A DNA stretch of 56,638 bases, from assembly GCA_045657225.1 (NCBI GenBank), contig JAZOSR010000033.1, forward strand, positions 1 through 56,638, in the 5' to 3' direction. The notes beneath the pieces were generated by a model that was not told the origin of the DNA, made no database searches, and worked only from the letters and a program-made list of their open reading frames with translations. The DNA is from Eubacteriales bacterium. GTDB lineage: Bacteria; Bacillota; Clostridia; Oscillospirales; CAG-272. Each line of letters begins with the position of its first letter. The first letter of the stretch is position 1. Of this stretch, positions 1-52,821 are shown in pieces. The position numbers and the translations under genes are program-made.

Positions 1-248
1 TCTTTTCACGTGGCGTGCCTTGAAAAGTTCACACTTGTCTGCACCACGCCGCACAAAAATCCTTCAAAAATTTTCTCACCGCAGGGTGAGGACAGTTTTA
101 AAAGAATAGATTTTCGAGTAAGACAAGTCGAATTTTTTGAGGAATATATGATATTTAAGAAAAATTCGTCGCAGTATGACCGAAAATATATCTTTTAAAA
201 CCTTATATGTTCGACTCCCTTGCGGCTAAGTACCATTTCGAGAATACC

Positions 249-318
249 CCTCTCCGATCCCCGGTGGTCGCCAATTCCTGGCTCCTCTCCGATCCCCGGT
301 GGTCGCCAATTCTTGGCT
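249..318. repeat. 35-bp tandem duplication (2 copies, 1 mismatch)
   Basis: CCTCTCCGATCCCCGGTGGTCGCCAATTC(C/T)TGGCT at 249-283 and 284-318; abuts the structured element starting at 315. Confidence 0.95.
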
Positions 319-445
319 CCCTCCGGGAGGGAGCTGGCGCCGCAGGCGACTGAGGGAGAGCGCGTTACAATAAACTTAGTCAAGATCCCAAATTGCGCAG
401 GCTCCTTCCACCGCGGGGCGGTCCCCCTCCCTCTCGGAGGGAGGC
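315..445. repeat. REP/REPIN-like four-hairpin inverted doublet, copy 1
   Basis: Hairpins GCTCCCTC-cgg-GAGGGAGC, CGCC-gca-GGCG, ACCGC-ggg-GCGGT and CCTCCCTC-tcg-GAGGGAGG; the two halves are inverted relatives; homologous copy at 49721-49853. Confidence 0.9.
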
Positions 446-790
446 CTTCACGGCACCATCAATATACTCACACACACTCCAAAAATTCGTGTCGATTTGA
501 TGGTTTGTAAATCGTATCACTTTCAAATCGTACCCCTCAAGAATTTCTGTGCGGAATTCATCCTTTTGTGTACCTTCTTCGGTATAATGCTGTGAGCCAT
601 CAATCTCTATTATCAGTTTTGCCTTGTGGCAATAAAAATCCGCTATAAAATTATCTATTGCCTTTTGTCGCTGGAACCTAATTTTATATTTTGCTAAAAA
701 GTCATACCATAAGTGATTTTCTTGCGGCGTTGCATTCTTGCGAAGATTTTTGGCAAGAGTAATATTCTTTTCGTTGTAATCAAGCGACAT
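380..790 (-). CDS. DUF559 / Vsr-like PD-(D/E)XK endonuclease domain protein
   Basis: AKNLRKNATPQENHLW, FQRQKAIDNFIADFYC, LIIEIDGSQH and KVIRFTN motifs typical of DUF559; GAAGGA RBS-like sequence upstream; last 21 codons encoded by the repeat. Confidence 0.85.
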   Translation of the reverse strand: MSLDYNEKNITLAKNLRKNATPQENHLWYDFLAKYKIRFQRQKAIDNFIADFYCHKAKLIIEIDGSQHYTEEGTQKDEFRTEILEGYDLKVIRFTNHQIDTNFWSVCEYIDGAVKASLREGGGPPRGGRSLRNLGS

Positions 791-827
791 ATATAATCCT
801 TCAAAAATTTATTACTTCTATAATAAG

Positions 828-867
828 ACAAATCTGCAGAGGAAACAATCCCTCTGCAGAAATTTGT
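828..867. repeat. Long hairpin with AAACAAT loop (second end of the DUF559 element)
   Basis: ACAAATCTGCAGAGG-aaacaatc-CCTCTGCAGAAATTTGT; homolog at 49876-49916. Confidence 0.8.
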
Positions 868-999
868 GAATAGACTTGTAAGCATTCACACATTTGCAGT
901 TTTTGTGCTTTCTAATTCTCCATCAAGAACAACATGTCAAATCCGTATCGTCTTTTTGCTATCATTTAACAACCGCAAAATTCGCTCCAAGTTCTTTTA

Positions 1000-1953
1000 T
1001 TATATCGTTTCGCCCTCATGAAAGGCGGTCGGCAGCACGACCACCTCGGGTGCGTGTTTTTTGCCGCGCAAGCGCGTGCGGAGCAAGCGAACGATCGTTT
1101 CCGCGACCTCATCGATCCCCGAGGGGATACACGCAACGTCAAGTGTTGGGTACAAGGGTGAGGGGTCGCTGTCCATCGAAATGACAGCCACGTCACGCGG
1201 CACTAAGGCACCGCGCGCCTCAAGTGCCGAAAGGATCCCTCTCGTAATATAACCGTAAGCGCCGATGATCGCCGTCGGTCGCTCGGGGAGCGCCCACAGG
1301 CGCGCCACACCGTCCGCCCCTGCCGCCTCAAAGCGCTCGCGAGAGCAGATCTCATATTCCTTGGGCATCGAAATGCCGCGCGTCGCAAGAAGCTCACGCA
1401 TGATCTCGCGCTTTTTTCCGGTGAACGCTTCACCCACGTAGGCAATGCGGCGGTGTCCTTTTTTGATCAGCGCGTCAATCGCCAAGGAAAGCCCCTCCTT
1501 CAGCGAGGTTTCGACCGAAACGTCGGCGCACGCGCAGCCTCTGCCGATCGAAACGAGCAGGGTGGAGGGTGCGCTCACCCCTTTAGGGAACGAGCCGAAA
1601 ATCACAAGCGCATCTACCTTGCTATATTCGGTATAGTAGCGCACCAGCTCCGCCTTCATCTCGTCATCAAAATTACTGATCGAAAGGAGCATGGTACAGC
1701 CGCTTTCCTCAATACCGCGCTTGAGGGCTTGCATGTAATGCACGTAATATTCACTGATCACCTCGGGGATCATGACGGCAACCACGGGTCTATCGTAGGG
1801 CGCGTGATAAAACTGTTGAAAGCACCCGTTCGCTCTTGCCACGGCAAACACGTGCTCGCGCATGGCGTCACTGACGTCCGCACTGCCCGAAAACGCCTTG
1901 GAAGCCACCGAAACCGATACGCTTGCCAGCTGCGCCAGCTTTTTCAGTGTCAT
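1000..1953 (-). CDS. LacI-family transcriptional regulator
   Basis: N-terminal HTH MTLKKLAQLASVSVSVASKAF; periplasmic-binding-like domain with GHRRIAYVG, PTAII and VPRDVAVIS. Confidence 0.9.
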   Translation of the reverse strand: MTLKKLAQLASVSVSVASKAFSGSADVSDAMREHVFAVARANGCFQQFYHAPYDRPVVAVMIPEVISEYYVHYMQALKRGIEESGCTMLLSISNFDDEMKAELVRYYTEYSKVDALVIFGSFPKGVSAPSTLLVSIGRGCACADVSVETSLKEGLSLAIDALIKKGHRRIAYVGEAFTGKKREIMRELLATRGISMPKEYEICSRERFEAAGADGVARLWALPERPTAIIGAYGYITRGILSALEARGALVPRDVAVISMDSDPSPLYPTLDVACIPSGIDEVAETIVRLLRTRLRGKKHAPEVVVLPTAFHEGETI

Positions 1954-1982
1954 ATCGTCACCCCCGTTTCAAAGTCGCTTTC

Positions 1983-2011
1983 ATTATACTCTATCCCACC
2001 CCGTCGGTCAA
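1983..2011 (-). promoter_or_regulatory. sigma-A promoter for lacI-like gene
   Basis: Minus strand TTGACC-17 bp-TATAAT, 30 bp upstream of the start codon. Confidence 0.7.
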
Positions 2012-2048
2012 GTAGAAAAAAGCAGAAATTTTTTCGGAGCAAAAGCAA

Positions 2049-2077
2049 TTGACACAAGAAGGGTTTGCGTATACAAT
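2049..2077 (+). promoter_or_regulatory. sigma-A promoter for MFS-GH39 operon
   Basis: TTGACA-17 bp-TACAAT. Confidence 0.7.
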
Positions 2078-2107
2078 ATACATATTACATAAAAAGGACG
2101 ACTTCAC

Positions 2108-3394
2108 ATGAACCAAACAAACGACATCGAACACGCAAGACGCCGCAGCCGAGGTATGTACATCGCCGAGGCGGCAGTCGAATATTTCATTTCGCTTTGT
2201 GTCACCTCTACGTTTTTGACCATACTCCTCAACGAAATGGAGGTTTCCACCGCCTATCAGGGCATTATCTCCTCGCTTGCCTCGCTTGCCTGCGTCGTGC
2301 AGCTTTTCTCGATCTTTGGCGTGAGGCGCGCCTACCCCTGCAAGCGCTGGGTGTGCACTCTCAATCTTCTCAACCAGCTCTTGTTTTGCTTCCTTTATAT
2401 CATGCCCTTTACCCCGTGGCGACCGCAGTTAAAGCTCGTTGCCTTCATCGGCATGCTGCTGCTTGCCTATTTCTGTCAGCACTTTATCACGCCCCACCGC
2501 ACGCAGTGGCACATGGAAAACGTTGACGACAACAAGCGCGGGCTTTTCACTGCCAATAAGGAGATCGTTTCGCTCATCGGCGGCATGATCTTCTCGCAAT
2601 GCGCCGCGTGGATGGTGGAGTATTTCCAAGGCAAGGGCGACATGAGGACCGCCTTTATCATTTTCGCAATTTCAATTGCGATCATGGCACTTATTCACCT
2701 CGGCTTGATGATCGGCATCAGCGAGCAAAAGCCGAAAAAAGAGATCGCCCCCAAAAAATTCGGCGAGATACTCTCACTCATCCTCGGCACCAAGCAGCTG
2801 CGCCTTGTGATACTTTTTGACATTCTCTTTGCCATCTCCCTCGTACCGGGGCACTTCGGCTCGGTATATCTCTTGCGCACGCTTGAATTCTCCCCCGTGC
2901 TCGTCACCGTCATTGCGGCAGTCGGCTCGGCGTTCCGCGCGATCGTGTCGCGCTTCCTCGGTCGTTATGCCGACAAGCACTCGTGGGTGGCGCTGATGCG
3001 CCTTTGCATGCTCGTGTCCGCCGCGGGTTACTTCTTCTTTGCCCTCTGCGCACCCGGCGTGGCTTCCTTGTTCCTTTACCCCATGTATATGCTCTGCCAC
3101 TCCTTCTCAATGGGCGGCACCAACTCGGCACGCACCAACCTTTGCCTTGACTACGTGTCGCACGAGGATCGCCGCTACGTTCTCGGTGTCAAAAACGCGA
3201 TCGCAGGTCTTGCCGATTTTGGCGTGACGCTCCTTGTTTCGCTCTTCGTTGACATCATCGAGCAAAACGGCAACAAAATTTTTGGTATGACGATCTATCC
3301 CCAGCAGCTTTTCTTTGCGGCAAACGCCGTGCTGCTCCTTTGCCTTACGTTCCTGTTCCTCCCCCACCTCAAAAAGAAAAACACCACAACATAA
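2108..3394 (+). CDS. MFS transporter (probable sugar/oligosaccharide uptake)
   Basis: 428 aa, about 12 hydrophobic segments, motif-A-like FLGRYADKHSW; AAGGA RBS; next to GH and LacI genes. Confidence 0.8.
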   Translation: MNQTNDIEHARRRSRGMYIAEAAVEYFISLCVTSTFLTILLNEMEVSTAYQGIISSLASLACVVQLFSIFGVRRAYPCKRWVCTLNLLNQLLFCFLYIMPFTPWRPQLKLVAFIGMLLLAYFCQHFITPHRTQWHMENVDDNKRGLFTANKEIVSLIGGMIFSQCAAWMVEYFQGKGDMRTAFIIFAISIAIMALIHLGLMIGISEQKPKKEIAPKKFGEILSLILGTKQLRLVILFDILFAISLVPGHFGSVYLLRTLEFSPVLVTVIAAVGSAFRAIVSRFLGRYADKHSWVALMRLCMLVSAAGYFFFALCAPGVASLFLYPMYMLCHSFSMGGTNSARTNLCLDYVSHEDRRYVLGVKNAIAGLADFGVTLLVSLFVDIIEQNGNKIFGMTIYPQQLFFAANAVLLLCLTFLFLPHLKKKNTTT

Positions 3395-3407
3395 AAGGAG
3401 AATGCAC

Positions 3408-4760
3408 ATGATCAACATTTCTGCGGACTTTTCAATCACCAACGGGCGCGTAAAGCCCATGCACGCCGTCAACAACGGCCCCGCGGGCTCCGAGGTGCGC
3501 CGGGTATCGAACTTCCCTGCCTTCCGTGAGGCAGGCATCCCCTTCGCGCGCACGCACGACGCCTCCTTTTTTTCGGGCTACGGCGGCGAATACACGGTTG
3601 ACGTGCACCGCATCTTCCGCGACTTTGACGCCGACGAAAACGACCCTGCCTCCTACGATTTCCGCGCCACCGATGCTTACATGAAGGATATTTTCTCAGT
3701 CGGCACCGAGCCCTTTTACCGCCTTGGCGCCTCGATCGAGCACGGCATCAAAAAGGGCACCTATCCGCCTGCGGATTTCGCCAAATGGGCAAGGATCTGC
3801 GAGCATATCATCCGCCACTACACCGAGGGTTGGGCTGACGGCTTTTTCTACAAGATCACCTATTGGGAGGTCTGGAACGAGCCCGATTGCACCAACGCCG
3901 ACGGCTCTCACCCCTGCTTCCAGGGTCCCTTAACGCTCTTCGCGGAGCTCTTTGACGTTGCCGTCAAGCACCTGAAGGCGTGCTTCCCGCACCTAAAGAT
4001 CGGCGGTCCTGCGCTTGCCAGCGTTTCCAAGGGTGAGCGCCTTGACACCATCTTTTCCGAAATGCAAAAGCGCGGCACACCCATTGACTTTTTCTCCTTC
4101 CACGTGTATGGCGAAACCATCACGAAGATCGGCGATCGAATCAACCGCGCACGCGAGTGGATGGTCAAATACGGCTACGGGGACTGCGAGCTGATCCTCA
4201 ACGAATGGAACTATATCAAGGGCTGGCTCGGTGAGGATTGGCGCCTTTCTCTGAAGCGTGAGCAGTCGCTCTTCGGCGCCGCATTCATTGCCGCCACCAT
4301 GGAGCTTTCCCAGCAATCTCCGCTTGATATGCTGATGTACTACGACGCGCGCCCCTGCGGCATGAACGGCATGTTTGCCAGCTACACCTACGAGCCCCTC
4401 AAGGGCTACTACCCCTTCCTCATGTTCAACGAGCTTTACCGCCAGGGCACTGCAGTAAACGCCGCGGATGACCGCGAAAACGGTATCTTTGCCACCGCCG
4501 CCAAGGACTGTAAGGGCAACGCCGCCATGATGCTCACCTACTTCCCCGAGGATGAGAACGACACGCCGACAAGAGAGGTGAAGGTCAATTTCAGCAATGT
4601 GAAGAACGAAAAGGGCGTGCGCCTTTCCTACTACCTGCTTGACGAGGAGCACGACGCCACGCTCGTGCGTGAGGAGGTCTTCACGGCAAGCGAGATCGCC
4701 GCTTACCTCAAAATGACACCCTATTCCACGTATCTCTTGAAGATCACCCCCTGTAATTAA
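3408..4760 (+). CDS. GH39-like (clan GH-A) glycoside hydrolase
   Basis: YWEVWNEPD acid/base motif, LKIGGPA, DFFSFHVY and ILNEWNY nucleophile motif; start moved to ATG 3408 after AGGAG. Confidence 0.8.
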   Translation: MINISADFSITNGRVKPMHAVNNGPAGSEVRRVSNFPAFREAGIPFARTHDASFFSGYGGEYTVDVHRIFRDFDADENDPASYDFRATDAYMKDIFSVGTEPFYRLGASIEHGIKKGTYPPADFAKWARICEHIIRHYTEGWADGFFYKITYWEVWNEPDCTNADGSHPCFQGPLTLFAELFDVAVKHLKACFPHLKIGGPALASVSKGERLDTIFSEMQKRGTPIDFFSFHVYGETITKIGDRINRAREWMVKYGYGDCELILNEWNYIKGWLGEDWRLSLKREQSLFGAAFIAATMELSQQSPLDMLMYYDARPCGMNGMFASYTYEPLKGYYPFLMFNELYRQGTAVNAADDRENGIFATAAKDCKGNAAMMLTYFPEDENDTPTREVKVNFSNVKNEKGVRLSYYLLDEEHDATLVREEVFTASEIAAYLKMTPYSTYLLKITPCN

Positions 4761-49012: not shown

Positions 49013-49071
49013 TAATAACGGCGGTCAACACAACGAGAAATGTTCTTAGCGAAAAAATTATCTAACAGCCG

Positions 49072-49119
49072 GTAGGGGCGAACTGTGTTCGCCCGCGGGC
49101 GTTCAAAAAACGCCCCTAC
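49072..49119. repeat. GTAG-type REP doublet (REPIN-like)
   Basis: GTAG-GGGCGAAC-tgt-GTTCGCCC followed by inverted GGGCGTT..AACGCCC-CTAC. Confidence 0.85.
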
Positions 49120-49156
49120 GGATAAGCAAAATTTAATACGCAGTAAACAATTAATT

Positions 49157-49196
49157 AACCCCGACAGATTTCAAACAATGAAAACCTGTCGGGGTT
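49157..49196. terminator. Long hairpin with AAACAAT loop; probable bidirectional terminator
   Basis: AACCCCGACAG-a-TTTC-aaacaat-GAAA-ac-CTGTCGGGGTT, 3 bp after the DUF4279 stop. Confidence 0.55.
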
Positions 49197-49199
49197 TGC

Positions 49200-49616
49200 T
49201 TATTCATTTTCAGAATTAAATAAATACATATCAATATCTATTTGTGTTCTTGTGGCATGACAAAAATCAATTACATCAAGAGGCGGCGCAAGACAAGGAT
49301 TGATATCATCAACATGAATGGAAGGCACAATCTCCAAAAAGAACTCAACATCATTTTCTTCTCTAATTTGATTTAGTATGGCAATCTTATCAAGTAACAT
49401 AGAAATTGTTTTTCTCATTTGATTTTCTACATACACATCATATTCCGCACATCTACCAATTTCCCAATTGGCAAATTCGTACTTTGTACCATTACGTCGC
49501 ACATCACCAATTTTCCAACTCTTTTCAGGTGTAAGGTTCAGTAACGCAGAAACATCGTCAGGATTGAAATTTCCAACAATCCTGAAATATGTATAGCAAC
49601 TATTTCTGGTATTCAT
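49200..49616 (-). CDS. DUF4279-like protein, AT-rich
   Basis: YFRIVG.FNPDDVSALLNLTPEKSWKIGD and terminal IDIDMY pattern; GGAGG RBS. Confidence 0.7.
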   Translation of the reverse strand: MNTRNSCYTYFRIVGNFNPDDVSALLNLTPEKSWKIGDVRRNGTKYEFANWEIGRCAEYDVYVENQMRKTISMLLDKIAILNQIREENDVEFFLEIVPSIHVDDINPCLAPPLDVIDFCHATRTQIDIDMYLFNSENE

Positions 49617-49720
49617 ACAATCCTCCGTAAATGTTTTGATTCATCGCCAGTTTCGCCTTTATATTACAAAGGCATAGGGCAAAGCCCATACCCCTTTAGA
49701 GATGTACGAGCGCATCCATA

Positions 49721-49917
49721 GGCTCCCTCCCGGAGCGAGCTCCCGACGAAGTCGGGTGAGGGAGAGCGCGTTACAATGAAGTTAGTACAAACCTAAAGTT
49801 ACGCAGGCTCCTTCCGTCACGCTAAGCGTGCCACCTCCCTCTCGGAGGGAGGCTTTTCGTTAGTTCCATTATAACACAAATCGGCAGAGGAAACAATCAC
49901 TCTGCCGAAATTTTGTG
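49721..49917. mobile_element. Gene-less (putative non-autonomous) copy of the DUF559-associated structured element
   Basis: 49721-49853 homologous to 315-445 and 49876-49916 homologous to 828-867, joined by 22 bp instead of 382 bp; mobility is inferred, not shown. Confidence 0.7.
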
Positions 49918-49968
49918 CCTTCAAATTCTCCGTTAAGGACAACAGAGAAATTGCGTTGACCGCTTTTT

Positions 49969-51780: not shown

Positions 51781-51792
51781 GGGGAGCTGAAA

Positions 51793-52821
51793 TTAGATCT
51801 CAGCAAAGTACTTGATGGTGCGAACCATCTGGCTGGTGTAGGAGTTCTCGTTGTCGTACCAAGAAACAACCTGTACCTGGTAGGTGTTGTCGTCGATCTT
51901 GGAAACCATGGTCTGGGTAGCGTCAAACAGAGAACCGTAGCGCATGCCGATGATATCGGAGGAAACGATCTCCTCCTCGTTGTAGCCGTAGGACTCGGTA
52001 GCAGCAGCCTTCATAGCAGCGTTGATGCCGTCCTTGGTTACGTTCTCGCCCTTTACGACAGCCACGAGAATGGTGGTGGAGCCGGTGCAGGTGGGAACGC
52101 GCTGAGCGGAGCCGATGAGCTTGCCGTTCAGCTCGGGGATAACAAGACCGATTGCCTTAGCGGCACCGGTGGAGTTGGGAACGATGTTCTGTGCGCCTGC
52201 ACGTGCACGGCGAAGGTCGCCCTTGCGCTGAGGACCGTCAAGGATCATCTGGTCACCGGTGTAAGCGTGAACGGTGGTCATGATGCCGGACTGGATTGCA
52301 GCGTAGTCGTTAAGAGCCTTAGCCATGGGAGCAAGGCAGTTGGTGGTGCAGGATGCAGCGGAAATAACCTGATCCTCAGCGGTGAGGGTGTTGTGGTTTA
52401 CGTTGTAAACGATGGTCTTGAGGTCGTTGCCTGCGGGAGCAGAGATAACAACCTTCTTAGCGCCTGCCTGAATGTGAGCCATGGACTTCTCCTTAGAGGT
52501 GTAGAAGCCGGTGCACTCAAGAACAACGTCAACGTCAAGCTTACCCCAAGGGCAGTCAGCTGCGTTCTTCTCAGCGTAGATCATGATCTCCTTACCGTCA
52601 ACGATGATGGAATTCTCGGTAGCGGCAACGGTGTGAGTGTTCTCACCCATCTTACCGCAGAAAGAACCCTGCGCGGTGTCGTACTTGAGAAGGTGAGCAA
52701 GCATTGCGGGGCTGGTCAGGTCATTGATCGCAACCACCTCGTAGCCCTCTGCGCCGAACATCTGACGGAACGCAAGACGACCGATACGGCCAAAGCCGTT
52801 AATAGCAACTTTTACAGCCAT
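51793..52821 (-). CDS. gap: Glyceraldehyde-3-phosphate dehydrogenase (type I)
   Basis: [19 protein letters not shown] and SWYDNE. Confidence 0.98.

Follow-up and report, generated by a model that had tools for sequence, protein, structure and literature searches.

We analyzed a 56,638-nucleotide (nt) stretch of DNA from an Eubacteriales bacterium (GenBank assembly GCA_045657225.1, contig JAZOSR010000033.1; this whole stretch is called the window below), in which a small nuclease gene of the DUF559 family lies against a 131-bp, hairpin-rich block that recurs elsewhere with and without such a gene. Because the block is two-fold symmetric, we named it and its relatives "doublets", and one end of a doublet a "half-doublet". 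Taken together, our results suggest that doublets and DUF559 genes constitute an undescribed kind of selfish repeat element. More specifically, we read them as a repeat system similar to REPIN/RAYT systems or to MITEs (miniature inverted-repeat transposable elements), built on a nuclease of the Vsr fold whose gene lies inside or beside the doublets, and we give this reading about even chances of being right.

The source genome (G000) comprises 1.88 Mb in 106 contigs and is 83% complete, which limits all negative searches in it that are reported below. Its contigs are labeled C (the window is C33), while G numbers denote genomes and L numbers loci. For comparison, we sampled 31 relatives, including G000, and a set of 40 genomes from the genus.

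Anatomy, copy number and boundaries of the doublets

Read inward, each end of a doublet consists of a perfect GC-rich palindrome with an 8-bp stem (P), a short variable hairpin (V) and a purine-rich linker. In the window doublet, one linker reads GAGGGAG, and it can pair with the other, complementary linker on the far side of a centre of about 44 nt. The outer palindromes are consistently of two types, GCTCCC...GGGAGC at one end and CCTCCC...GGGAGG at the other; that each is compensated within itself argues that they are local hairpins rather than mere inverted copies. The main parts in the window are the following (ORF, open reading frame; aa, amino acids):

315-445, no strand assigned: doublet copy A, 131 bp, defined by sequence, alignment and loose contig ends at 315 and 445
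316-334: outer palindrome P of copy A
336-350: V hairpin of copy A, with a GCA loop and one G.A mismatch
352-358: linker of copy A
359-401: centre of copy A
402-408: complementary linker of copy A
410-422: V' hairpin of copy A
426-444: outer palindrome P' of copy A
380-790, minus strand: DUF559 ORF, 136 aa, YcjD-like, Vsr-fold PD-(D/E)XK, with the domain at 458-763
828-867, minus strand: terminator-like hairpin with a stem of 10-12 bp, downstream of a LacI-family gene (1000-1953) and upstream of the DUF559 gene
49721-49853, no strand assigned: gene-less doublet copy B, 133 bp, defined by alignment, BLAST and folding

A preliminary description of this DNA had held that the block at 315-445 and the hairpin upstream of the gene recur at 49721-49917 with the gene absent. 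Alignment bore this out: copies A and B are 78% identical (E 1.5e-24, BLAST within G000) and contain the three identical blocks that had been pointed out, and the hairpin at 828-867 is repeated at 49880-49917 with its loop and flanks conserved (87% over 54 nt). Folded as single-stranded DNA, the four doublet strands gave z-scores of -3.3, -1.7, -3.0 and -3.5, and the two separate hairpins -7.2 and -4.2. Copy B folds into five successive hairpins on both strands, and in the minimum-energy fold of copy A the two outer palindromes pair with each other.

The block had 27 BLAST matches in G000, 8 of them full length (the query included) and the remainder single halves. We also searched for doublet ends across the 40 genus genomes, scoring 8 candidates per genome, and found ends of 52-58 nt with 90-98% identity in 36 of them, with more than 430 matches. 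Gene-less doublets are the abundant form, far more numerous than gene-bearing ones; their centres of 24-44 nt are conserved in length and related to one another. We take them to be the non-autonomous form.

The ends of the element are marked independently by contig divergence. When contig sets from 4 gut metagenomes were compared with positions 1-3500 of the window, summed contig depth was 80-669 across the bins 235-468 and 0-35 outside them, and contigs diverged into unlike sequence before position 315 in all four runs (4-10 contigs each) and behind position 445 in two of the four.

Smaller palindromic pieces are nested within the hairpins of some doublets. The left palindromes of L216 and L218 carry an insert of about 85 nt, and L217 and L056 carry one of about 44 nt with a GGGGAACCCC-type hairpin in or near V'; that nested pieces occur at the same relative position across genomes and variants hints at hairpin-targeted insertion. 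A 37-nt unit (containing atagccgaccgacgagggacggagaggaggc), often in tandem, follows the CCTCCC-type end of several doublets (C53:150-300, C40:990-1060, C83:18218-18260 and C102:7126-7200 in G000; L025), and separates the DUF559 genes of C53 and G005:C9 from their doublets. Separately, we considered whether the outer palindromes represent a duplicated palindromic target, and rejected this candidate as their loops are reverse complements rather than copies.

The DUF559 protein and its selection

The ORF at 380-790 matches PF04480 (DUF559) with an E-value of 1e-27 and a score of 96.6 bits, well over the cut-off of 20.6. The doublet encodes its last 21 or so residues, starting at about residue 115, and its stop codon. 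Against the YcjD model NF007294 of NCBIfam, the E-value was 6e-16 and scores were 58.6-69.4 bits over nearly the full model, compared with a cut-off of 218 bits; by this comparison, the DUF559 proteins studied here are relatives of YcjD and not equivalogs. A PDB sequence search returned as closest solved structure 3HRL, itself a DUF559 protein (2e-23), followed by a weak match to the homing endonuclease I-Bth0305I (3R3P, profile E 0.0025). Four residues of catalytic type, D51, E62, D64 and H68, are invariant among 24 sequences. PADLOC showed weak, domain-level likeness only, to methyl-directed restriction enzymes, DpdF and a homing endonuclease. In a published classification, Vsr, DUF559 and DUF2726 are placed in one clade, with T/G mismatch repair and intron homing as the known activities (PMC3424549), and VsrA of Caulobacter, which carries a DUF559 domain, is described as functionally tied to cytosine methylation (PMC12907096).

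The ORF is under strong purifying selection: across gene-bearing units, the median ratio of non-synonymous to synonymous substitution rates (dN/dS) was 0.04 (37 pairs). An early stop was present in 1 of 16 gene-bearing copies, and stops or fragments occurred at a few other loci.

G000 contains seven DUF559 genes above the PF04480 cut-off. Canonical Vsr (PF03852) matched neither the window protein nor anything else in G000, and C5 cytosine methyltransferase (PF00145) had no match there either, although absence is not proven in a genome of this completeness. In line with the preliminary description, which had proposed a Vsr-like rather than an HUH enzyme, no Y1/RAYT transposase (PF01797) was found in G000; the control search with the same model matched 6 of 14 genomes.

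DUF559 genes are specifically associated with doublets

To measure the association, we used a strict definition of the half-doublet that is blind to the DUF559 sequence. With this definition, a half-doublet lay within 200 bp of 6 of the 7 DUF559 genes in G000, compared with 217 of 20,000 random windows of 306 bp (1.1%). The preliminary claim that the gene belongs with a structured element, present in many copies and found in gene-less form too, is supported, and the physical link is both specific and stronger than had been noted at the outset. Among 13 pairs of halves facing each other within 3 kb in G000, the centre measured at most 60 nt in 8 and 77 nt in 2; one further centre of 288 nt combined mixed variants in a repeat-dense stretch, and the two remaining centres, both of 353 nt, were DUF559 genes. 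DUF559 is therefore the only coding cargo seen between facing ends.

Reading the flanks in G000 showed how the genes are placed. On C42, C45 and C3, the DUF559 gene lies inside a doublet of a variant other than that of the window. Its left side consists of P (CCTCCCTT-gtgta-AAGGGAGG), V and the linker GGAGGGATTG, and the ATG follows 2-3 nt past GGAGGGATTG and 7 nt past its GGAGG core; on its right side, the ORF runs into the complementary linker CAATCCCTC, a V' that holds the TGA stop, P' and a T-run. Gene-less versions of this variant are present on C95, C91 (two) and C75. The gene on C20 shows the right half and then the contig end, and the genes on C33 (the window) and C53 each adjoin a doublet that is complete. 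After the gene on C8 comes a pair of halves of a third variant, in reversed order.

Beyond G000, PF04480 was found in 18 of the 31 sampled relatives (G000 counted) and in 30 of the 40 genus genomes. We read the flanks of 23 genes by eye and found 10 canonical brackets, 1 reversed bracket, 3 genes abutting a doublet, and 9 with one half or a contig end. Each protein clade is paired with its own end variant, the linker pairs being GAGGGATTG/CAATCCCTC, GGATGAGGTG/CACCTCATCC, GAGGGAGAG/CTCTCCCTC, GGAGAGGG/CCCTCTC and GGGTGGTTT/AAACCACCC. In a scan of one genome per species, which returned 562 relatives, the best 80 loci were kept, 3 of which had flanks too short for testing. At 36 of the 77 tested loci, the upstream and downstream flanks formed an inverted repeat whose score exceeded that of the best of 30 shuffles by 6 points or more. 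The density of perfect hairpins of at least 7 bp was 5.60 per kb next to the gene, compared with 1.08 per kb farther out in the same loci, a ratio that overstates the enrichment because the far flanks are mostly coding; 73 of the 80 loci had at least one such hairpin.

The gene-bearing unit occurs in many unrelated contexts

We delimited 16 distinct gene-bearing units of the GATTG variant, which measure 441-448 bp from palindrome to palindrome and have a median pairwise identity of 81.7% (maximum 97.1%). In the common form, the ATG lies 5-8 nt beyond a linker resembling a Shine-Dalgarno (SD) sequence, and the ORF crosses the complementary linker to stop in the far V hairpin; compared with a gene-less doublet, the gene replaces only the 24-28 nt centre and leaves the ends unchanged. 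The flanks mark it as a discrete unit present in many unrelated contexts. Among the left flanks, only one pair had homology of at least 60 nt. On the right, 6 of the 16 units have a common 135-nt module and a seventh has a 38-nt piece of it, while the others have nothing in common beyond the unit. Homology between the units of C3 and C42 likewise ends within a few bases of the outer palindromes.

The 135-nt module contains two hairpins, one of which scores as a minus-strand terminator, and follows both gene-bearing and gene-less doublets in several genomes (L022 1868-2016; the right flanks of L092, L097, L129, L130 and L132; also L048). Its presence alongside several doublets suggests that some copies move or persist as a larger block.

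The window arrangement is a variant within a composite repeat

The preliminary description took the order hairpin, gene, doublet as its basic layout. This layout is real in the window, but it is not the basic unit, as most relatives have the gene between the linkers. The window represents a variant: its gene, which belongs to a sister clade, directly adjoins a complete doublet at the outer end, within a composite repeat of about 300 bp. Proteins of the window clade are 76-94% identical in L048-L061, and one layout is kept across many metagenome-assembled genomes (MAGs): a conserved stretch, a hairpin, the gene, a complete doublet and an 80-nt tail. The hairpin is usually followed by TATAAT, about 8 nt past it in the relatives. 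In this clade, the first palindrome of the doublet encodes C-terminal residues of the protein and the stop is mostly a TAG in the V loop; the V of the window differs, and its ORF extends to position 380. In the C53 relative, the protein ends instead in a natural tail of 15 residues. As had been claimed, the hairpin at 828-867 recurs, but as a terminator-like module of the composite, which also hosts other doublet variants; it scores as an intrinsic terminator for the LacI-family gene, and the window doublet itself was not flagged.

The features of the window that surround the two doublet copies are as follows:

249-325, no strand assigned: 35-bp tandem repeat, 2.2 copies, 95% match, which abuts and overlaps the left end of doublet copy A
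49640-49937, no strand assigned: gene-less composite repeat, consisting of a tail (49640-49720), copy B, a spacer, the hairpin 49880-49917 and a conserved stretch to about 49937
49200-49616, minus strand: DUF4279 gene starting just past the tail module; context, outside the element

The 298-bp composite (49640-49937) recurs across the genus on many contigs with 80-89% identity, and its middle is found in four states. It can be a single hybrid palindrome (C17:470-690; L215 from G041), a gene-less doublet of either variant (copy B on C33, C75, C12, L156, L157, L160), a doublet with DUF559 inside (G015:C150, G009:C30, G010:C39), or a gene abutting a doublet (the window, G008:C37). The state with a single palindrome may represent a site that is empty, the footprint left by excision, or the result of a collapse between two palindromes.

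Some further observations concern the surroundings of these elements. A 'gtcgccaat' stretch related to the 35-bp tandem repeat precedes the doublet on C40. Two other parts of the window are conserved or repeated across the genus: 49040-49205, with 79-90% identity at many sites, and 51792-52000, with 85-95% in nearly every genome. A DMP19-like gene adjoins an element at L022 (977-1378, plus strand); DUF4279 and DMP19-like proteins are small families typical of variable islands.

The variable hairpins have a pattern that fits DNA hairpins or a two-way terminator

From all sequence collected, we gathered 197 halves, with 130 unique V segments. A perfect V stem of at least 5 bp was present in 159 of the 197 halves, compared with 4 of 197 shuffles, and we conclude that these hairpins are under selection. 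The earlier claim that stems change while their pairing is kept was confirmed in copies A and B and extends well beyond them, with 66 different stems among the halves. Mismatches are very rare: in the 618 stem positions of the unique V segments, we counted 3 internal G.T and 2 A.C pairs. GNA triloops, whose stabilizing effect on DNA hairpins the preliminary description had brought up, dominate (56 of 75, with no TNC on the inward-reading strand), and since they are counted on the inward-reading strand, the strand that carries the favored loop at one end is opposite to that at the other. Closings of the C-GAA-G kind are characteristic of mini-hairpins of very high stability in DNA. The pattern would fit DNA hairpins or cruciforms, and also a two-direction terminator, rather than a one-strand guide RNA. 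Rfam gave no match at gathering score for the window and 20 related loci, and only chance-level matches at E up to 5.

Two features bear on expression. The right palindrome and T-run of the gene-bearing unit score as an intrinsic terminator, and the SD-like linker is paired in every variant, its complement lying within the last codons. Judging from this placement, the two ends of the mRNA may pair and mask the ribosome site until read-through. The palindromes have no common methylation-type motif.

Counterparts in Chloroflexota and E. coli

Among 41 sampled Chloroflexota genomes, 17 contained PF04480. For a flank test, we selected 15 small stand-alone genes, excluding ORFs above 400 aa, weak matches and genome G094; two had flanks too short for the test. 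In 7 of the remaining 13, the flank inverted repeats scored above all 20 shuffles. By reading, these seven genes have the palindrome CCCTCTCC...GGAGAGGG, and the linkers GGGGTGAGG/CCTCACCCC around the ORF. The bracketed loci include L180, L181, L183, L184 and L186 (G079, G064, G071, G067 and G087), and their bracket motif is nearly the same as the repeat adjacent to ycjD of E. coli. With one gene from each of three other lineages, Megasphaera passed the flank test, and a Desulfovibrionaceae MAG and a Lachnospiraceae genome failed it.

In E. coli K-12, the SD sequence and annotated GTG start of ycjD, a DUF559 gene, lie within a 14-bp hairpin, and its stop codon lies in the loop of a CCCTCTCCCT...GAGCGAGGGG hairpin. 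The latter belongs to a GC-rich repeat found at 21 places in K-12, with another copy about 150 nt further on; across 5426 E. coli genomes, the repeat occurs at a median of 15 places per genome. In K-12, certain copies make up doublets built as P-linker-27 nt-linker'-P', with no V hairpin. The gene itself is single and has a fixed place between sapF and fabI. This repeat is probably BoxC, first described upstream of envM (now fabI). The size and copy number tabulated for BoxC agree with those of the repeat (PMC2267715). The E. coli loci used here are:

L219 5030-5850, corresponding to about 1351030-1351850 of NC_000913.3: ycjD region
L224 1299-1819, also L248 and L249: loci for the fepB-entC element

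The fepB-entC element bears a doublet and is truly polymorphic for presence and absence, although this concerns E. coli and not the lineage of the window. At least 80% of the 521-nt query was covered in 2755 of the 5426 E. coli genomes, and a 186-bp segment was cleanly absent in two strains, with TAA at both junctions of the filled site.

As a tentative generalization, about which we are more doubtful than hopeful, DUF559/YcjD nucleases may be the cognate enzymes of widespread GC-rich palindromic repeats, including the doublets, their Chloroflexota counterparts and BoxC-like repeats.

Proposed mechanism and alternative explanations

We regard as solid the anatomy, boundaries and copy number of the doublets, the specificity and breadth of their association with DUF559 genes, their occurrence in many contexts, the purifying selection on the ORF and the compensatory changes in the stems. 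In the selfish system that we propose, we infer that the nuclease is catalytically active, that it recognizes the doublet ends and that the element is mobile. The nuclease would act on ends that are folded or extruded, both those of its own element and those of gene-less copies, and nicking or cutting at these ends would start copying. The outcome could be homing of the gene into gene-less doublets via repair, mobilization of doublets in trans, or a combination of these. Translation would be kept low because the SD-like linker pairs with its complement, and the outer palindrome with its T-run would end transcription.

A number of our results weigh against a system of this kind. The gene of the window itself lies outside its doublet, and gene-less doublets also occur where no DUF559 gene was found, as in G045 (99% complete), which has 19 matches and no gene. 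No target-site duplication was seen in 16 gene-bearing and 19 gene-less Clostridial units; instead, AAG stands on the left of the element and CTT on its right (..AAG|element|CTT..), an inverted and not a direct pair. The centres of gene-less doublets, being conserved in length and related, are not fresh deletion products. The single-hairpin sites C17 and L215 can be explained by simple collapse between palindromes, and the perfect Watson-Crick stems suit a two-way RNA terminator equally well. Three copies in G035 are 92-95% identical to one another and start exactly at the left end, but as they are no closer than copies elsewhere, recent movement is not demonstrated. Moreover, we know of no PD-(D/E)XK nuclease of this size that serves as a lone transposase.

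Finally, no orthologous pair of filled and empty sites was found for the Clostridial elements among the genus relatives, because their flanks are too diverged. Across the 40 genus genomes, the flanks of the C3 unit were 66-67% identical or unmatched, and never matched on both sides in one genome. The flank of copy A with the LacI and major facilitator superfamily genes had only 70-78% matches, to the helix-turn-helix part, probably paralogues, and no relative turned up when metagenomes were scanned with the LacI protein. In relative G047, the 2.8 kb that holds copy B is missing in its entirety between the same flanks, so that this genome offers no element-level comparison. The best sequencing run shares 0.11 of sampled words with this strain, and no RNA run was listed; since no run contains the strain, the metagenome contigs are uninformative on polymorphism at the window locus. 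Contig joints there, with sides of 20-31 letters and 85% likeness, are not trustworthy and probably derive from other organisms, and two single-contig joints (sides 53 and 56) were unrelated to the element. As a separate matter, we do not favor the idea that gene-less doublets are recent internal deletions of gene-bearing units, given the conserved length and mutual relationship of their centres.

Some of these points would be expected if the doublets were repeats of greater age, either selfish or belonging to the host (two-way terminators, for instance), and spread by other means, with DUF559 as a free-standing homing gene that cuts the centre of a gene-less doublet and is copied in by repair. 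The missing target duplication, the persistence of gene-less doublets where no gene is found, the replacement of only the 24-28 nt centre between unchanged ends and the pairing of each protein clade with its own end variant all agree with such a homing-only parasite, and one member of the fold group, I-Bth0305I (3R3P, E 0.0025; listed in a table of PMC3424549), is a genuine homing endonuclease. We nevertheless consider it unlikely: it leaves the spread of the doublets unexplained, with no Y1 transposase found in G000 to account for it, the window clade and C53 have their gene outside the doublet, the likeness to the homing enzyme is weak, and no filled/empty pair was seen for the gene itself.

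DUF559 might instead be a Vsr-like repair or restriction-type nuclease kept for the benefit of the cell, next to repeats that act as terminator and translational brake and merely travel along or pile up. Such a host function would account for the strong purifying selection, for the terminator score of the right palindrome with its T-run, for the pairing of the SD-like linker in all variants and for the fixed position of ycjD between sapF and fabI, and it has a precedent in the tie of Caulobacter VsrA to cytosine methylation (PMC12907096). A host enzyme would hardly be expected, however, in seven paralogues in a genome in which neither a C5 methyltransferase nor Vsr was found, in the same 445-bp unit in many unrelated contexts, with some copies decayed, and with the same ends far commoner without the gene; the lack of a common methylation-type motif in the palindromes also argues against it. 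We therefore judge this explanation improbable.

The preliminary description had further suggested that the nuclease may bind the transcript of the element, and had pointed to TnpB guide RNAs. On this explanation, a structured doublet transcript would guide or regulate the nuclease, as omega RNA does for TnpB or IscB; the overlap of the 3' end of the ORF with a structured element, the covarying stems and the linkers, which would circularize the mRNA, are in its favor, but it can be given very little credence in view of the near-pure Watson-Crick stems (G.U is practically absent, 3 in 618 positions), the two-fold symmetry, by which the GNA loops of one end are on the strand opposite to those of the other, the small protein of about 120 aa with a single nuclease domain, the lack of any Rfam match, and the lack of a variable guide-like segment beside a conserved scaffold.

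Comparison with known systems

The analogy to REPIN/RAYT systems and to elements with autonomous and non-autonomous forms, drawn in the preliminary description, fits the anatomy found here. In REP/RAYT systems, units are scattered genome-wide in many copies, the nuclease gene is flanked by them, and stems show compensatory changes. Doublets have all of these features, as well as the inverted hairpin pairs around a spacer; REPINs are described as two hairpin units inverted around a short spacer (PMC3337134). The selfish system proposed here differs in that its enzyme has the Vsr fold of PD-(D/E)XK nucleases, with no Y1 transposase (PF01797) found in G000, and in that its gene is multi-copy in varied contexts, each end has two hairpins and an SD-like linker, and the ORF spans the ends. 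With MITEs and their parent insertion sequences (IS), doublets have in common the sharp boundaries and the terminal inverted repeats found on short gene-less and rarer gene-bearing forms; unlike these, the Clostridial units showed no target-site duplication, their ORF of about 120 aa belongs to no known transposase family, and the gene-less centres are conserved in length rather than random deletion products. IS200/IS605 elements differ from doublets in their PF01797 transposase, which was not found in G000, and in having subterminal hairpins on one strand at both ends; the hairpins of doublets are arranged with two-fold symmetry, so that the GNA loops of the two ends are on opposite strands.

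Among nucleases, the EDxHD homing endonuclease I-Bth0305I (3R3P) and 3HRL are of the same fold group (PMC3424549), but the doublet DUF559 genes are free-standing and intergenic, lying between hairpin ends with no intron or intein. E. coli YcjD is a full-length relative whose ORF also ends in a hairpin of a GC-rich repeat, some copies of which are doublets; the E. coli side lacks the V hairpin and has a single, fixed gene. Vsr and VsrA have the same Vsr-like PD-(D/E)XK fold, and VsrA carries a DUF559 domain (PMC12907096), whereas the doublet DUF559 genes are multi-copy and embedded in repeats, with no Vsr match or C5 methyltransferase found in G000. In a literature search at the level of listings and abstracts, we found no work that links DUF559 to repeats.

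Significance

The DUF559 family is very large, yet hardly any function has been assigned to it. To our knowledge, several classic families of intergenic repeats, BoxC-like repeats among them, have neither a known origin nor a known mobilizing enzyme. With the link between DUF559 and repeats in three phyla, these two puzzles become a single question that can be tested. For annotation, it is of practical use that the odd C-terminal tails of many DUF559 proteins are encoded by repeats. If the nuclease acts on folded hairpin ends, it would represent a new enzyme class among the proteins that move or maintain bacterial repeats, and might yield a compact structure-specific nuclease. If the tentative generalization to DUF559/YcjD nucleases and GC-rich palindromic repeats holds, it would amount to a second REP/RAYT-like world, in which a PD-(D/E)XK nuclease works on folded DNA ends, and thus to a new class of mobile elements with a new chemistry.

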